Sequence record: PQ818763
Source of the DNA: Shigella phage ShigP1
Length of the DNA: 64,000 bases
Reading direction: 5' to 3' (one strand)
The first letter of the stretch is position 1, and each line of letters starts with the position of its first letter. Positions 12,787 to 63,269 of this stretch are shown piece after piece. The notes beneath the pieces are model-generated. The model made no database searches. It was not told the origin of the DNA and saw nothing but the letters and a program-made list of their open reading frames with translations. Position numbers and translations under genes: made by a program.

Positions 12787-13729
12787 ATTAAAGAGCGGTA
12801 AATCTATCAGTGTGCTTTCTCACACTATGCAACTGTTAGCCGTTGTTACGCTTTTCACTGAAGCGATGATTTGCTTAGTGAGTGCTCATTATGAATCATG
12901 TTGTTTTCGCTGTCAACCGCTTTTTAATCTTTTTCGTCGTTCCCGCTATTGGGAGGATATATCAATCAGCTTTATTTGATTGAAGATTAAGCGGTGAGGC
13001 TTAACTTATGACTCATGTTGTTAAAGAGCGTTTAGCCTTTTAAAGTGTCTGCTAATCACTGTCACATTGAAGGCTTACTGATTCATTAACAGGCCGCCTA
13101 CACCTGAACTAATCGCTGCACTATGTGCCACCTTTCCCGCGATACGTTGATTTGGGAACTAGTTAGCGATGTTTTGCTAACTTGTGGTTAGTATGGACTA
13201 CTTTAACCACGTTTGCAACTCTTTTTATCATCTTCTTTTAATTCCTTTCCCTTATCTCGCGTGAATCTATGCGAAAGGGCAAGATGATAAGTCTGATTTG
13301 TCTTTCAGGGAATCTAGTGCGCTTTCAAGCATTAATCTTTTGAAAGTATCGAACAAATAAGGCTTATTGATATTGCTTATTGTCCGCCTGCGTCACGTAT
13401 GAATCAGGAATCAATTCTACCGATTAACTGAGCGCCTTATAGTAATGACGTCGCCGCCACCCGTAAGACAAATCATATTTTTAAAGAGCGGGATTTTTTA
13501 AGTCATCGCTGACTATGCTCACTATATATCAGGCTGTTTTCGGTGTCAATACTCTTTTTAAGAATATTTTCACTTTCTAGCCTGATTTTTAAAGAGCGGG
13601 GCAAGTTTCCTTGCCTTGTATGTTTTACATCGTACCCGATGAAATGAAGTATACATTAATCAGTGAGGGATGCAATAGGGTAAAACAAAATATTTTAAAC
13701 TTTTTCACTATAGGAAGGTAAAAGAGCGG
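12787..13729 (+). repeat. five dispersed copies of the motif TTTAAAGAGCGG in an ORF-poor region
   Basis: Copies at 12787-12798, 13020-13031, 13480-13491, 13588-13599, 13718-13729, all in the same orientation; copy 4 is followed by a GGCAAG-TTTC-CTTGCC hairpin. Confidence 0.6.
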
Positions 13730-25388: not shown

Positions 25389-25457
25389 GTTTTAAGACCT
25401 ATACAAGCTAGTGTGTAATGTATATTCTTTGTCTACATATAACAAGGAGGACAACCT

Positions 25458-42098: not shown

Positions 42099-42165
42099 GA
42101 CCTAAGTCCTGCCTTCTATAATGTATATAGGGGGTAGGACATTTTTATTTATAAAAGGAGACGTT

Positions 42166-52266: not shown

Positions 52267-52682
52267 ATTTTAATTTCCTTATTTAATTTGAAAGATTGTT
52301 GCTCTCTTTGAGCGGTTATGTATAGTATACATTACGCTTATACCGATAAGAGTACTATATAATATAAGTATCTTTGGTAGTAGATATAACACACTAGTAA
52401 TGTATATATTGTATAGCTGATAAAGTTATTGCAGGCTTGTATATTGGGCAATTCACAGAATCCCTTGCAAGTACCGAAGGGCAGGAGCCACCTGCGAGAT
52501 AAAAATAGAGAATTAAGGAATCCTTGATTTAGGTTGTAGGGACTCCTAGGGACTTTGATTCTCTATTTAAAAGAATATTAATTACTTATTACCTAAATAA
52601 TTAACTAACCTACTTAAACCAAATTCAAGAATAATAGATAAAAAGATTATTCCTAAGAAAGCTAAAAAGTAAAGGATATAAG

Positions 52683-58348: not shown

Positions 58349-58404
58349 TTAGAACTCCTTAATATATCAGTGTACACTAAGGAGTATACATTATAAGTTA
58401 CTGT

Positions 58405-59142: not shown

Positions 59143-59324
59143 TTACGCTCTCCAATTTCTTCGTAATGACATTCAGTAGTTAAACAATCTTTACAGATTG
59201 CTGTGTAAACCCTGACGTTAGTAAATCGTTTGTTCTTCCCTTTGGTTGGAGAGCCTTTAGCAAGCTCTCTGATAACCTTGTTACTTAAGTGAAGGTTTGT
59301 CCCTTCACATCTAGAGCACTTCAT
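59139..59324 (-). CDS. small zinc-ribbon protein
   Basis: CSRCEG...CKDC motifs. Confidence 0.4.
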   Translation of the reverse strand: MKCSRCEGTNLHLSNKVIRELAKGSPTKGKNKRFTNVRVYTAICKDCLTTECHYEEIGERK

Positions 59325-59640
59325 GGTTCATATCTTTATGAAGTCTATAAACAGCTGTCGCCATACAAGCAACAGCTTCATTATGCGGGAGATGCATACC
59401 TGTAGAACCATCCCAATCCCTGAACTCATTGTCAAAGACTCCGGTAGGCTCTTGATACAAGGCTTGCAACTCCACTAGATCATTAGCAACTTGTTGCCAT
59501 TTATCATCAGACCAGATAGGGTCATCCAACCAGTAATACAAATAGGAATGGATGATCAATTGCCTTCTGTGCCGATTAATTACTTCAGCGGGACTTATCT
59601 CACTTCCATTTGAAGTCCTAAATGTATTACTGTCAATCAT
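59311..59640 (-). CDS. hypothetical protein (109 aa)
   Basis: ORF track only. Confidence 0.4.
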   Translation of the reverse strand: MIDSNTFRTSNGSEISPAEVINRHRRQLIIHSYLYYWLDDPIWSDDKWQQVANDLVELQALYQEPTGVFDNEFRDWDGSTGMHLPHNEAVACMATAVYRLHKDMNHEVL

Positions 59641-60052: not shown

Positions 60053-60709
60053 TTAACTCTCCAAAGTTTTCTTCAGAGCTGCCCACGAGATTGGGTAGAG
60101 TTTAGCCATCTCTTCATCTAGAGATTTAGCAAACACTCGAACTTCATATTGAGCGTGAGAGGAGAGTCGCTGACGACACAACTCAAACCAGCCGTACAAA
60201 GAACCGGTCCACACCCACTCAGTGATCATCCCCTGAGGAAGAACAAATCGAGCTTGCTCTGGTGCAATAAATTCAATCAACTTGTCATATGCTGCTAGAG
60301 AAGCTTCATATGAATCGTTAATCAGCATTAATGCTTCAGCTCGCTCTCCGTCGATGAGTTGAACCCCTGAACCTGCATGGAGGTCCGAAGGTCTCGCAAA
60401 AATCTCTTTAGGGATGAAGACTTCAACTGCTCCATCTTTATACCGCCGGGACATTTCGTTCCACGAGAATCCAACCTGATGCTTCTGTAGTTGACGAGCG
60501 ATTGCAATTGGAGCCTTACAACGAAAGGACACTTGTGGATGACGGAACGGAGTGCAGTGTTTCTCTCTAGCCAAGAAGTTAATCAGCCGAGTATCACGAT
60601 CATTCAAATCACCCTCTCGTACAACACCAAAAGAAACTCTTGCAGCATTAACAACAGTTTTATCACTGCCCATAGCTTCAATCAATGTTGCTTGCAATTG
60701 TTCATTCAT
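60053..60709 (-). CDS. thyX: flavin-dependent thymidylate synthase (ThyX)
   Basis: ThyX signature RHxxVSF...SxNEMSRRY. Confidence 0.75.
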   Translation of the reverse strand: MNEQLQATLIEAMGSDKTVVNAARVSFGVVREGDLNDRDTRLINFLAREKHCTPFRHPQVSFRCKAPIAIARQLQKHQVGFSWNEMSRRYKDGAVEVFIPKEIFARPSDLHAGSGVQLIDGERAEALMLINDSYEASLAAYDKLIEFIAPEQARFVLPQGMITEWVWTGSLYGWFELCRQRLSSHAQYEVRVFAKSLDEEMAKLYPISWAALKKTLES

Positions 60710-61181
60710 ACTTCAACTTCTCCTTGTTATAAGCAATCTCTGCTTCTTCTGGAGTATGGAAAGTTCCTAAATGCTTAGTCTTTCCGTTAACTCCGATGAT
60801 AGCTCTGAATTTTGTACCACTAGCCGTCTCTCTGATGTAAACACCCATTGGGAGTTTTCCAGCTTTTCCGGCTCTGTTGTATTGTTTTCTGTTATGACAG
60901 TTTGTAGATGGGTCAACATCTCTTAGGTTTTTAAGAGAGTCATCCAGTTTAATCTGGTTGATGTGATCAATCTCAAACTCAGGCATCTTTCCATAAGAGA
61001 AAAACCAAGCTAATCGACATGCTCTGTAAGATTTCCCTTCATAATAGATGTACCTGTAGCCTAATGTTGAGATACACCCAGCAATATTCCCTGATACTCT
61101 CCGACCTTTAGTGTTCTTCCACCTAAAGATTCCAGTATCAGGGTCATATGCTAGGTCTTCTTTTATCTTATCAGTTAACAC
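60702..61181 (-). CDS. HNH homing endonuclease with C-terminal AP2 DNA-binding domain
   Basis: EIDHINQIKLDDSLKNLR...CHN (HNH_3-like) and GVYIRETASGTKFRAIIGVNGKTKHLGTFHTPEEA (AP2-like); free-standing between the thioredoxin and thyX genes. Confidence 0.65.
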   Translation of the reverse strand: MLTDKIKEDLAYDPDTGIFRWKNTKGRRVSGNIAGCISTLGYRYIYYEGKSYRACRLAWFFSYGKMPEFEIDHINQIKLDDSLKNLRDVDPSTNCHNRKQYNRAGKAGKLPMGVYIRETASGTKFRAIIGVNGKTKHLGTFHTPEEAEIAYNKEKLKYE

Positions 61182-61446: not shown

Positions 61447-61695
61447 GTAAATCCTTATGCAGTCAGGAGGTGAAGCAGGAATGGGATAACAACAGCTACG
61501 ATAACCATGACAGTTGATGCTGTTTGAATCTCACCTTTCTTATCAGGAGTTTCTTCAATAAGCTTACCAGAAGCCCAATAAATACCACCACCAATAAAGA
61601 TAGCCCAAATACCCCATACGATTGCTGATAACATATATCTATATCCTTATAAATAAGTTCGCCCCACCTCGGGTTAGGAGACAGGGCGGAGGTTT

Positions 61696-62307
61696 TTAGT
61701 AAGACACGTCACCACTTGAATGGGACATGTTGCTCTTGACGAAGTAGCAATACTTGCCAAGACCTTCATTTATTTCTTGAAGCATACTCTGGTCAACTGG
61801 ATAAGTGGCTAAATCGCCATCAAACTCATCCATCTTCTCAATAATACACATCAATGTCATGCACATATCAGAGAGCATACCGTCCATGTCTAGATCAGCA
61901 TTACCCTCTGAGAACCAAGCATGAGATAGGTAGTTAGCTGCTGTAGCGTCCACTTTAACACAGTGGTAACGCATACGTTCAGCAATACGATCTCCTACTT
62001 GTCGTGCGTAATCTTCCAGCTCATCAAACATACCATGAACACCCTGAAATCCTGAACCAGAGACGTTCCAGTGGTAGTTTTTAGCTTTGATATGCAAGAG
62101 TTCCATGTTAGCTTGTAAGCAGCTCAGGATGTGTTCTAGGCTGTTTCCACTAATCATACCTTGCATCGTTTCAAGGCGAGAGATTGATAGGTCGGACCGG
62201 TCTAACATATTGTAGCTGTCACGACCAATCTCAGGTAAATCAAAGACATTCTTATGCATTTGGGTTTTCTCCATCAAGTTCAACTGAGTTAGCAACGTTA
62301 CGTGCAA
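61696..62307 (-). CDS. Dps-like ferritin-superfamily protein
   Basis: YHWNVSGSGFQGVHGMFDE and DRIAERM match the Dps ferroxidase-site pattern. Confidence 0.55.
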   Translation of the reverse strand: MHVTLLTQLNLMEKTQMHKNVFDLPEIGRDSYNMLDRSDLSISRLETMQGMISGNSLEHILSCLQANMELLHIKAKNYHWNVSGSGFQGVHGMFDELEDYARQVGDRIAERMRYHCVKVDATAANYLSHAWFSEGNADLDMDGMLSDMCMTLMCIIEKMDEFDGDLATYPVDQSMLQEINEGLGKYCYFVKSNMSHSSGDVSY

Positions 62308-62581
62308 TATTATCCATTACCTGCTGGGTAATTACGATGCAGTTCTGTGGGTCTACTGACTTAGAACGCCCCATTTCAGGGTCATACACCTTAACTCGCT
62401 TAGCAGTTGAACCTGTAACCTGAAGAACCTTCAACAGATACCCCTGATTACCAATAGACCAAGCAACAACATCACGATTCTTGATAAAGCGACCAAGCAT
62501 ATCACGATGATAAAACTGTTGCATCACCTTGGATTTTGTAATCTCTTCAGTGGGCGGGGCCACTTTACTCAAATCTAACAT
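62252..62581 (-). CDS. hypothetical protein (109 aa)
   Basis: ORF track only. Confidence 0.4.
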   Translation of the reverse strand: MLDLSKVAPPTEEITKSKVMQQFYHRDMLGRFIKNRDVVAWSIGNQGYLLKVLQVTGSTAKRVKVYDPEMGRSKSVDPQNCIVITQQVMDNIARNVANSVELDGENPNA

Positions 62582-62653
62582 AACTCTCTCCTGTAAAATA
62601 CAAATTCTTATTGTACTCTATATACATTTGAGAGTTATCATATCTACTACCAA

Positions 62654-62863
62654 TCAGTAGTAAATTACTTTAGACATAAAAGAACCAGTGTTAGGGTCTT
62701 CATACCAGCGATGTATGTCAGCGCTTTTTACTATTGTGCCCAGAGTCTTCAACTGTTTCTTAGCAATACGAGCCTCTTTGCGAGTGTCAAACAATTTGAT
62801 GTTATCTTTTCTCATGTGTTGCTCAAGATCCCAAACAACATGAATAGCCCACATCTTTTTCAT
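62654..62863 (-). CDS. small protein, paralog triplet 3 (C-terminal Y-Y)
   Basis: Basic, about 67 aa, ends VIYY; tandem with two similar ORFs. Confidence 0.45.
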   Translation of the reverse strand: MKKMWAIHVVWDLEQHMRKDNIKLFDTRKEARIAKKQLKTLGTIVKSADIHRWYEDPNTGSFMSKVIYY

Positions 62864-63072
62864 TAGTAATGTACCTTTCCGCTGATATAAACACGACCAG
62901 AAGAATACTCCTTGGCCTTATGGATGCTGATACTATTAACCACGTCACCAGTAAGCATAGTCTTTTTAAAATCTCGAGCTTGTTGACGAGTAGGGAGTGC
63001 AGTCATAGTCATACCACCTGATGCCCACTTAATCTTCGCTAACCAGAATTTTCTCATAGTGATTGGTCTCAT
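62863..63072 (-). CDS. small protein, paralog triplet 3
   Basis: About 69 aa, ends KVHY; overlapping start and stop. Confidence 0.45.
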   Translation of the reverse strand: MRPITMRKFWLAKIKWASGGMTMTALPTRQQARDFKKTMLTGDVVNSISIHKAKEYSSGRVYISGKVHY

Positions 63073-63269
63073 TAGTAATAAACCTTACTGTTGACACAAA
63101 AAGCACCTTCACTATTCACGATAGCTTTTCCTAGTGTAACCTTATTAAGTCTAAAAGTAGACTTGTATTGATTTTTGACCCTACGTGCGTGCTCTCGAGT
63201 CTTAACAAAATCTACAGCTACTAACTCTCCAGTCGTGTTATCATGTACACGAACAATCCACTTTTTCAT
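63072..63269 (-). CDS. small protein, paralog triplet 3
   Basis: About 65 aa, ends KVYY; overlapping start and stop. Confidence 0.45.
   Translation of the reverse strand: MKKWIVRVHDNTTGELVAVDFVKTREHARRVKNQYKSTFRLNKVTLGKAIVNSEGAFCVNSKVYY

Follow-up and report, generated by a model that had tools for sequence, protein, structure and literature searches.

That the prolate (C3) podophages related to coliphage phiEco32 carry a gene of the Dps family is not new. The GenBank record of phiEco32 from 2008 (EU330206) already labels the gene product, gp67, a 'DNA-binding protein' and 'member of the Dps family', and its homologues have been discussed for SU10 (2014) and for the Proteus phage Privateer (2021). 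In the SU10 paper, the gene was among those common to all five C3 phages then sequenced (PMC4281155). Dps genes have also been described in Lactobacillus and gut phages, where they were proposed to counter oxidative stress in infection (PMC8008677). A preliminary description of the locus analysed here had noted a Dps-like ferritin and did not know of it as a routine phage function; the phage function is, however, documented in the phiEco32 record and in the literature (EU330206, PMC4281155, PMC7881722, PMC8008677). Our search of the literature for biochemical or genetic experiments on any phage Dps found none. Here we compare the locus with these systems and argue, at a probability of about 0.6, that it encodes a soluble Dps ferroxidase cage that removes Fe2+ and peroxide while phage DNA is being synthesised in mid-infection. 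As far as we could find, four features of this protein are apparently undescribed, namely a remodelled iron-entry pore, a non-basic N-terminal extension, an unusual cysteine content and a conserved partnership with a gp68-like gene.

The window is a stretch of 64,000 nucleotides from Shigella phage ShigP1 (PQ818763), and all positions given are positions within it. The 4 kb surrounding the gene match 98 phage records, nearly all of them phiEco32-related Escherichia phages, at 94-97% identity. The phiEco32 record is classified in the Gordonclarkvirinae, genus Kuravirus, and on this nucleotide similarity the window is a phiEco32-like Kuravirus.

The gene lies in a minus-strand open reading frame that occupies 61696-62307. 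This is the frame from which the preliminary description started, although the strand had gone unstated there; the plus-strand reading of 61696-62307 is riddled with stop codons and was rejected, and the motifs HWNVSGSGFQGVHGMFDE and DRIAERM on which that description relied are found exactly in the minus-strand translation. The product length of 203 aa given there is the maximal length of the open reading frame, counted from a TTG codon. We rejected this TTG in favour of an ATG at 62259, because the latter has a Shine-Dalgarno sequence, GGAG, 9 nt before it (62269-62272, minus strand), shares nucleotides with the stop codon of the preceding gene (ATGCATAA), is equivalent to the start used in the GenBank records of phiEco32, EcM-vB1, EP335 and SU7, and agrees with the mass of 21.2 kDa found for the SU10 orthologue by mass spectrometry (PMC4281155). 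The product is therefore most likely a protein of 187 aa, whose coding sequence with its stop codon spans 61696-62259 on the minus strand.

The protein is 98.5% identical in amino acid sequence to phiEco32 gp67 (ABY52868) and is its orthologue; the two are of equal length and share the start context and the neighbouring genes, with gp68 upstream and a small membrane protein and thioredoxin downstream. The same gene is found as phiEco32 gp67, as SU10 CDS67 and in EP335 and SU7 (Kuravirus and other Gordonclarkvirinae). Elsewhere in the public records it is called "ferric iron binding protein", "hypothetical protein" or "integrase". The last of these labels, carried for example by IME267, KM01 and YW01, is an annotation error, as there is no recombinase match in Pfam, NCBIfam or PHROGs and the fold is that of Dps.

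Profile searches place the protein within the ferritin superfamily and, more narrowly, among the Dps proteins. Pfam Ferritin (PF00210) was matched at 30.3 bits against a gathering cut-off of 24.5 bits (E=4.7e-7), phrog_3636 was matched at E=3e-55, and a search of the PDB recovered about 40 distinct Dps sequences at E<0.01, of which the best was M. smegmatis Dps2 (E=1.2e-9); such scores lie well outside what chance would produce. A profile built from the family retrieved 3418 Dps-like representatives at E<=1e-3. The NCBIfam Dps equivalog models were matched far under their cut-offs (33.7 against 114 bits for NF006975), and the protein and E. coli Dps are accordingly not orthologous.

Structure prediction gave a concordant picture. 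An AlphaFold2 monomer model of the 187-aa protein, built from a 79-sequence alignment, has a mean pLDDT of 89 and folds as a four-helix bundle, with predicted helices A (residues 41-65), B (71-98), C (125-146) and D (154-176). Between B and C the model contains the short BC-loop helix (107-112) that is specific to Dps and separates it from 24-mer ferritins, and it has no C-terminal E helix. Residues 1-40 form a predicted N-terminal extension with an extra helix of lower confidence at 22-37. When the model was compared with the PDB by Foldseek, the top 50 matches were all Dps proteins (TM on target 0.72-0.91), the best superpositions having an rmsd of 1.1-1.6 A across approximately 135 residues. 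Assignment to the 24-mer ferritins and bacterioferritins, or to DpsL with its intra-subunit di-iron centre, was rejected, since all significant sequence and fold matches are to canonical Dps; the spacing H-x11-H-x14-D-x3-E is likewise that of the Dps inter-subunit site and argues against an intra-subunit di-iron centre. The gene has a dN/dS of 0.03-0.07 relative to phiEco32, EP335 and SU7, which shows that it is under purifying selection. The open reading frame, the profile matches, the orthology to gp67, the AlphaFold2 and Foldseek results and the dN/dS identify the gene product as a genuine Dps-family mini-ferritin, which bears out the call made from the letters of the sequence.

The ferroxidase site is complete. 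In the numbering of the 187-aa protein, its residues are H63, W64, H75, D79, D90 and E94, with codons within 61978-62073 on the minus strand, and they are invariant in alignments of 47 and of 79 sequences. They are the equivalents of H51, W52, H63, D67, D78 and E82 of E. coli Dps; on the E. coli and L. innocua sequences that served as rulers, the published residue numbers all landed on the expected residues. H63, W64, H75, D90 and E94 are invariant in 58/58 sequences of the phage clade and in 62/62 cellular Dps sequences. The ferroxidase pattern noticed at the outset is thus a full motif with ligands conserved throughout the phage-clade and cellular sequences aligned, and the outcome that would have spoken against a Dps protein, namely no ferritin-like match and unconserved ligands, is clearly not what was found. 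By analogy with the Dps family, the site would be located at the dimer interface, and conservation of such an inter-subunit metal site implies that the protein should at least dimerise.

Within the Dps family, the phage proteins stand apart. Phage-clade relatives score at least 129 bits against the profile whereas thousands of cellular Dps proteins score 87 bits or less, leaving a sharp gap between the two. The relatives above this gap originate from phage records or from contigs no longer than about 100 kb, a size that suits phage genomes. In the phage collection, the clade occurs in Kuravirus-like coliphages, Salmonella phage 7-11, Proteus phage Privateer, Cronobacter phages GAP52 and A24, and the Aeromonas LAh phages. 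Together with a few distant matches in Streptomyces and Synechococcus phages, the clade accounts for 136 of the 50,697 records of the phage collection. As judged by these sequence scores, it is a discrete Dps clade that is restricted to the prolate (C3) podophages. A Dps- or ferritin-like fold is also present in Lactobacillus phages LP65 and Semele, the gut 'Gratiaviridae', cyanophage S-SRM01 and Bacillus phage G, but they fall outside this clade, with at most 27% identity or a structural match only, and their Dps-like genes were probably acquired independently.

The more distant members of the clade, from the Grimontviridae and Lahexavirus (7-11 gp73, Privateer gp068, GAP52 and A24, and LAh_8 gp125), are 32-45% identical to the window protein. 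They share with it the ferroxidase ligands, the inner pore residue (Asn or Ser), neighbours from nucleotide metabolism and a gp68-like partner. They differ in being shorter (144-170 aa), with short, basic N-termini of net charge +3 in place of the 40-aa non-basic extension. Cellular Dps proteins (M. smegmatis Dps2, 2z90 and 4m35; B. anthracis Dlp-2, 1jig; B. brevis, 1n1q; L. innocua; E. coli) show 16-27% identity and have in common with the window protein the four-helix bundle, the BC-loop helix, the inter-subunit His/His/Asp/Glu ligands and the adjacent Trp. The window protein departs from them in lacking a Lys-rich tail, in having Tyr and Ser in place of the pore residues Asp125 and Asp130, and in its extra helix at 22-37.

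These departures bear directly on whether the protein binds DNA. In some cellular Dps proteins, such as those of E. coli and M. smegmatis, basic tails mediate DNA binding, and by this precedent the phage protein could be a DNA-binding or DNA-condensing protein that coats replicating phage DNA, or compacts or remodels the host nucleoid, with iron chemistry a secondary matter. The small, basic N-termini of the 7-11, GAP52 and A24 type (for example MLTARPKRNV) would suit such a role, and the predicted barrel of the gp68-like partner, of an SH3/Tudor/KOW-like kind that is frequent in nucleic-acid binders, weakly hints in the same direction. The window protein itself, however, has a net charge of -15 and a pI of 4.7. 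Its N-terminal extension has 1 Lys and 3 Arg and a net charge of -2, where the Lys-rich tail of E. coli Dps carries +3, and its C-terminal tail is without basic residues; it has neither the Lys-rich N-terminus nor the equivalog score of an E. coli-type DNA-binding Dps. The extension contains conserved motifs (FDLP and S-x-x-R-L-E-x-M), although in dN it evolves approximately 6 times faster than the core. The ferroxidase ligands are invariant, which argues that catalysis is the function under selection, and the 'DNA-binding' label in GenBank is a mere transfer of the family name. Because the protein is acidic and its extension non-basic, E. coli-type DNA binding is unsupported, and the premise of the preliminary description that a phage Dps would bind DNA finds no backing in the sequence. 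We regard a primarily DNA-binding protein as unlikely. In the Kuravirus subclade, Dps is probably a soluble ferroxidase cage rather than a protein that coats DNA.

The route by which iron would reach the interior of such a cage may also be altered. In L. innocua Dps, the iron-entry pore has an outer set of residues, Glu118, Asp121 and Asp126, and an inner ring of three Asp130 (PMC8389677). The position of Asp130 is occupied by Ser in the window protein, and by Asn or Ser in 58/58 sequences of the phage clade against Asp or Glu in 50/62 cellular sequences. At the position of Asp125, where 62/62 cellular sequences have Asp, there is a Tyr in the window protein, and at that of Asp126 a Pro. An acidic, 'ferritin-like' three-fold pore is therefore missing from the window protein; some cellular Dps proteins likewise lack these residues, and an acidic pore is a common feature of Dps proteins and not a strictly defining one. 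Two residues before the Asp130 position, at the position of L. innocua T128, the window protein has an aspartate, D156. An aspartate at this position is present in 26/58 phage sequences; it is seen in the Kuravirus subclade and is missing from the Grimontviridae and Lahexavirus proteins. D156 might compensate for the replaced pore carboxylates. Remodelling of the iron-entry pore implies that uptake of iron may be slower, or may follow another route. The C-D loop is shorter by 2-3 residues than in cellular Dps proteins. In composition, cysteine makes up 2.7% of the window protein, the median being 2.6% for the phage clade and 0% for cellular Dps; the clade is rich in methionine as well, which makes up 8% of the window protein.

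We next consider the genes that surround Dps. Reading along the minus strand, the window has the order dCTP deaminase, three tandem paralogous small genes, the gp68-like gene and Dps, followed by a 59-aa membrane protein, thioredoxin, an HNH endonuclease, ThyX, a set of small genes that includes a ligase-like homologue (59311-59640), and PhoH. The HNH endonuclease between thioredoxin and ThyX is present in the window and in EP335 but not in phiEco32. Privateer has dCTP deaminase, then thioredoxin, gp68-like, Dps and an ATP-cone-like protein; LAh_8 has NrdD, PhoH, DprA and NrdG, after which come a hypothetical gene, gp68-like, Dps and an NrdR-like ATP-cone protein; and 7-11 has thioredoxin and gp68-like, four small genes, then ThyX, Dps and an ATP-cone-like protein. 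For the protein that follows Dps in Privateer and in 7-11, a glycyl-radical 'spare part' was considered and rejected, because the PHROG match is to the N-terminal ATP-cone of NrdD. In these four divergent lineages, Dps thus sits beside genes for thioredoxin, dCTP deaminase, ThyX, PhoH, anaerobic ribonucleotide reductase or ATP-cone proteins. The preliminary description had placed the gene in the replication module of a lytic phage; more exactly, its setting is the middle-gene module of a virulent phage, with genes for replication and nucleotide metabolism.

This setting raises a second possibility, that the cage is not an antioxidant and instead buffers iron or donates it to enzymes of nucleotide synthesis, such as the di-iron NrdAB of the host or the Fe-S enzymes NrdD and NrdG of the phage, which it would supply or protect while replication draws on dNTPs. 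The linkage to nucleotide metabolism is persistent, extending to NrdD/NrdG in LAh_8 and to the ATP-cone proteins of Privateer and 7-11, and thioredoxin, the reductant of ribonucleotide reductase, is found nearby in all four lineages. Yet no ribonucleotide reductase is apparent in the Kuraviruses, the window included, the Privateer paper found only two Privateer biosynthesis proteins to be common to Kuravirus, and ThyX is a flavoenzyme. A partner for iron release, such as a reductase or a ferredoxin, was not seen near Dps, and Dps proteins are not known to act as iron chaperones. Donation of iron is, in our view, quite improbable, and removal of Fe2+ and peroxide by a ferroxidase cage remains the reading that we prefer.

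A recurrent neighbour of Dps is the gp68-like gene (62252-62581, minus strand), which directly precedes it in three of the lineages and lies near it in 7-11. It encodes a protein of 109 aa belonging to phrog_10984, a family of unknown function, with homologues at 31-37% identity in Privateer, LAh_8 and Salmonella phage 7-11. Pfam gave no match for this protein, its PHROG match was to the unknown-function family only, and a profile search of the PDB gave only chance matches, to the designed propeller Tako8. The AlphaFold2 model, of medium confidence (pLDDT 70), shows a small beta-barrel followed by a C-terminal helix, for which Foldseek found no significant fold, returning generic SH3/Tudor/KOW-like barrels at E>0.02.

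Overlap of the Dps start codon with the stop codon of the gp68-like gene indicates that translation of Dps is coupled to that of its partner. Upstream of the gp68-like gene lies AAATGTATA (62621-62629, minus strand), which was identified by pattern search as a match to tAATGTAtA, the promoter consensus for gp36, the sigma factor of phiEco32. The promoter pattern occurs 23 times in the window as a whole against 20.9 expected, so there is no excess over chance, and we give this match weight because of its position alone, where it is identical to the mapped phiEco32 P68. A gp36-dependent promoter has been mapped before phiEco32 gene 68 and is one of six mapped experimentally (PMC8948821). The intergenic segment around AAATGTATA is identical in phiEco32, and AAATGTATA itself is invariant in EP335 and SU7. 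By this similarity, it would be the middle promoter of a unit comprising gp68 and Dps.

At the other end of this unit, a consensus scan detected an 11-bp hairpin with a weak U-tract, 7 nt past the Dps stop codon (61660-61688, minus strand). Its centroid fold has an energy of -15.5 kcal/mol, with a z-score of only -1.66. The stems are conserved in the window, phiEco32, EP335 and SU7 while the loop is variable; one U-G to U-A change in the stem preserves the pair, and double compensatory changes are absent. Since the stems are conserved despite saturation at synonymous sites (dS of at least 1.4), we retain the hairpin as a candidate element, possibly a terminator, an attenuator or an RNA-stabilising element that closes the unit. 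Taken together with the overlapping codons, this organisation suggests that gp68 and Dps form a bicistronic unit of the middle class with translational coupling. Expression of the SU10 orthologue was observed through mass spectrometry, with 6 peptides and 35.8% coverage, the most peptides among the middle-gene products (PMC4281155).

Mass spectrometry also bears on a third possibility, that the protein is associated with the virion, being packaged in or bound to the long prolate capsid and delivered with, or shielding, the encapsidated genome. In Privateer, mass spectrometry found the homologue in particles purified by step and equilibrium CsCl gradients, together with ten verified predicted virion-associated proteins (PMC7881722), and the SU10 orthologue was found in a phage concentrate. 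The gene is moreover core to all podophages of the C3 morphotype, and BFVD has phage proteins under the name 'prohead protease' with a Dps-like four-helix domain. Against this, the gene is in the middle (replication) cluster and not in the late structural cluster. The SU10 preparation of 2014 was contaminated with lysate, as DNA polymerase, sigma factor and thioredoxin were also present in the sample, and a cryo-EM and gel-band mass spectrometry study of SU10 covers the capsid, tail and ejection proteins gp20-24 with no mention of gp67 or Dps. Stable, dense cages, possibly loaded with iron, could also co-purify with phage. Association with the virion is, on this balance, very doubtful.

A wider reading is that Dps and gp68 of the C3 podophages make up a two-component module, in which a thioredoxin-linked detoxifier of peroxide and iron would be tethered to DNA or the replisome, or loaded into the capsid. 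We consider such a module decidedly improbable. It draws on the neutralised pore, the several cysteines and the long, non-basic extension of the Kuravirus proteins, and the version with capsid loading would fit the detection of the protein in CsCl-purified Privateer particles.

For the soluble ferroxidase cage, the following course of events can be proposed. Dps would be made in mid-infection from a promoter of the phage sigma factor, co-transcribed and translationally coupled with gp68, and expressed alongside the genes for dCTP deaminase, thioredoxin, ThyX, PhoH and polymerase. The four-helix subunits would be expected to form a hollow dodecamer, the part of the structure that extends beyond the predicted monomer, with inter-subunit centres that would bind Fe2+ through H63 and H75 from one subunit and D90 and E94 from its partner. 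Either H2O2 or O2 would serve as the oxidant of Fe2+, and the shell would hold the ferric mineral inside. Removal of free Fe2+ and peroxide would suppress Fenton chemistry during the high-rate replication of phage DNA.

One reason for a phage to carry Dps would be that its host can no longer induce its own. phiEco32 gp79 inhibits sigma-70 transcription (PMC8948821), and this shut-off would block induction of the host dps, catalase and peroxiredoxin genes; a host under a phiEco32-type shut-off would in particular be unable to induce its OxyR-regulated dps. During infection by phage YerA41, host dps, catalase and peroxiredoxin are among the most induced host genes (PMC7354516), so that lytic infection can set off a strong oxidative-stress response in the host. 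Compensation for shut-off is nevertheless not a general argument, because phage 7-11 retains Dps and shows no shut-off of host transcription (PMC8948821).

Whatever the role of the protein, the "integrase" label on this gene in many GenBank records could wrongly flag Kuravirus candidates for therapy as temperate. If the proposed role is true, virulent phages bring with them their own defence against iron- and peroxide-dependent DNA damage, beside a phage thioredoxin. It would also mean that oxidative stress limits phage replication, which would be relevant to phage therapy in inflamed or iron-variable settings.

The gene encoding the gp68-like protein (109 aa, phrog_10984; window 62252..62581, minus strand) is translationally coupled to that of Dps, and homologues are found immediately upstream of Dps in Proteus phage Privateer (locus L003, 3139-3423) and Aeromonas phage LAh_8 (locus L005, 3109-3462), while that of Salmonella phage 7-11 (locus L004, 1897-2163) adjoins thioredoxin. 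Identity is 31-37% for these three homologues. Structure prediction gives a small SH3/Tudor-like beta-barrel followed by a C-terminal helix, and the sequence NVGxNMDLE is conserved at the C-terminus in the distant homologues. Together, the gp68-like and Dps genes look like a conserved two-gene cassette. Between the dCTP deaminase gene and this gp68-Dps unit lie three tandem small paralogues of phrog_4939, all on the minus strand (62654..62863, 69 aa; 62863..63072, 69 aa; 63072..63269, 65 aa), each of which is closed by a (V/I)(I/H/Y)Y motif.

The gene that follows Dps differs between the window and the non-Kuravirus C3 phages, the prolate podophages that share this Dps clade. In the latter, the product is a stand-alone ATP-cone-like protein of approximately 98 aa with similarity to phrog_36488 and to the N-terminal part of the NrdD profile; it is encoded right after Dps in Privateer (gp067, L003 3898-4194), 7-11 (gp072, L004 3911-4210) and LAh_8 (gp124, L005 3929-4201, annotated as NrdR-like). 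In the window, however, it is replaced by a 59-aa membrane protein (61455..61634, phrog_9296). An HNH_3 homing-endonuclease gene (60702..61181, minus strand) is located between thioredoxin and ThyX; it is present at this position in the window, EP335 and Ptacy1532 but not in phiEco32, and is a mobile insertion polymorphism inside the module.

Kuravirus Dps (61696..62259, minus strand) has a methionine content of 8% and contains five cysteines (C46, C100, C133, C137 and C171), whereas most cellular Dps proteins have none; C133 is nearly invariant within the close family. The presence of a phage thioredoxin gene approximately 250 bp downstream raises the possibility that Kuravirus Dps may be subject to thiol-based redox regulation.

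Exact matches to TAATGTATA, the consensus for promoters dependent on the phage sigma factor gp36, occur on the minus strand at 58385..58393, 52326..52334 and 13650..13658, and on the plus strand at 25416..25424, 42119..42127 and 52398..52406. Because the total for the whole window shows no excess over chance, only position lends meaning to these matches. That at 58385, just downstream of PhoH, fits the phiEco32 promoter mapped ahead of gene 58.

Dps-like four-helix domains were also found in uncultured Caudovirales proteins of 333-763 aa in BFVD (TMq 0.57-0.72), which carry the names 'prohead protease' or 'Dps'. These are A0A6J7XDU5, A0A6J7WPK9 and A0A6J7WIS1, together with the long 'Dps' proteins A0A6J7WVS4, A0A6J5RFH1 and A0A6J5N5R9. 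These models hint that a ferritin-like domain may be fused to capsid-internal proteins in some phages.

In many GenBank genomes the Dps gene is labelled 'integrase' (for example IME267, KM01, YW01 and VTCCBPA_211, and further CHD5UKE1, EC.W2-6 and IMEP8). This is an annotation error, and one that could falsely imply a temperate lifestyle when candidate therapeutic phages are screened.
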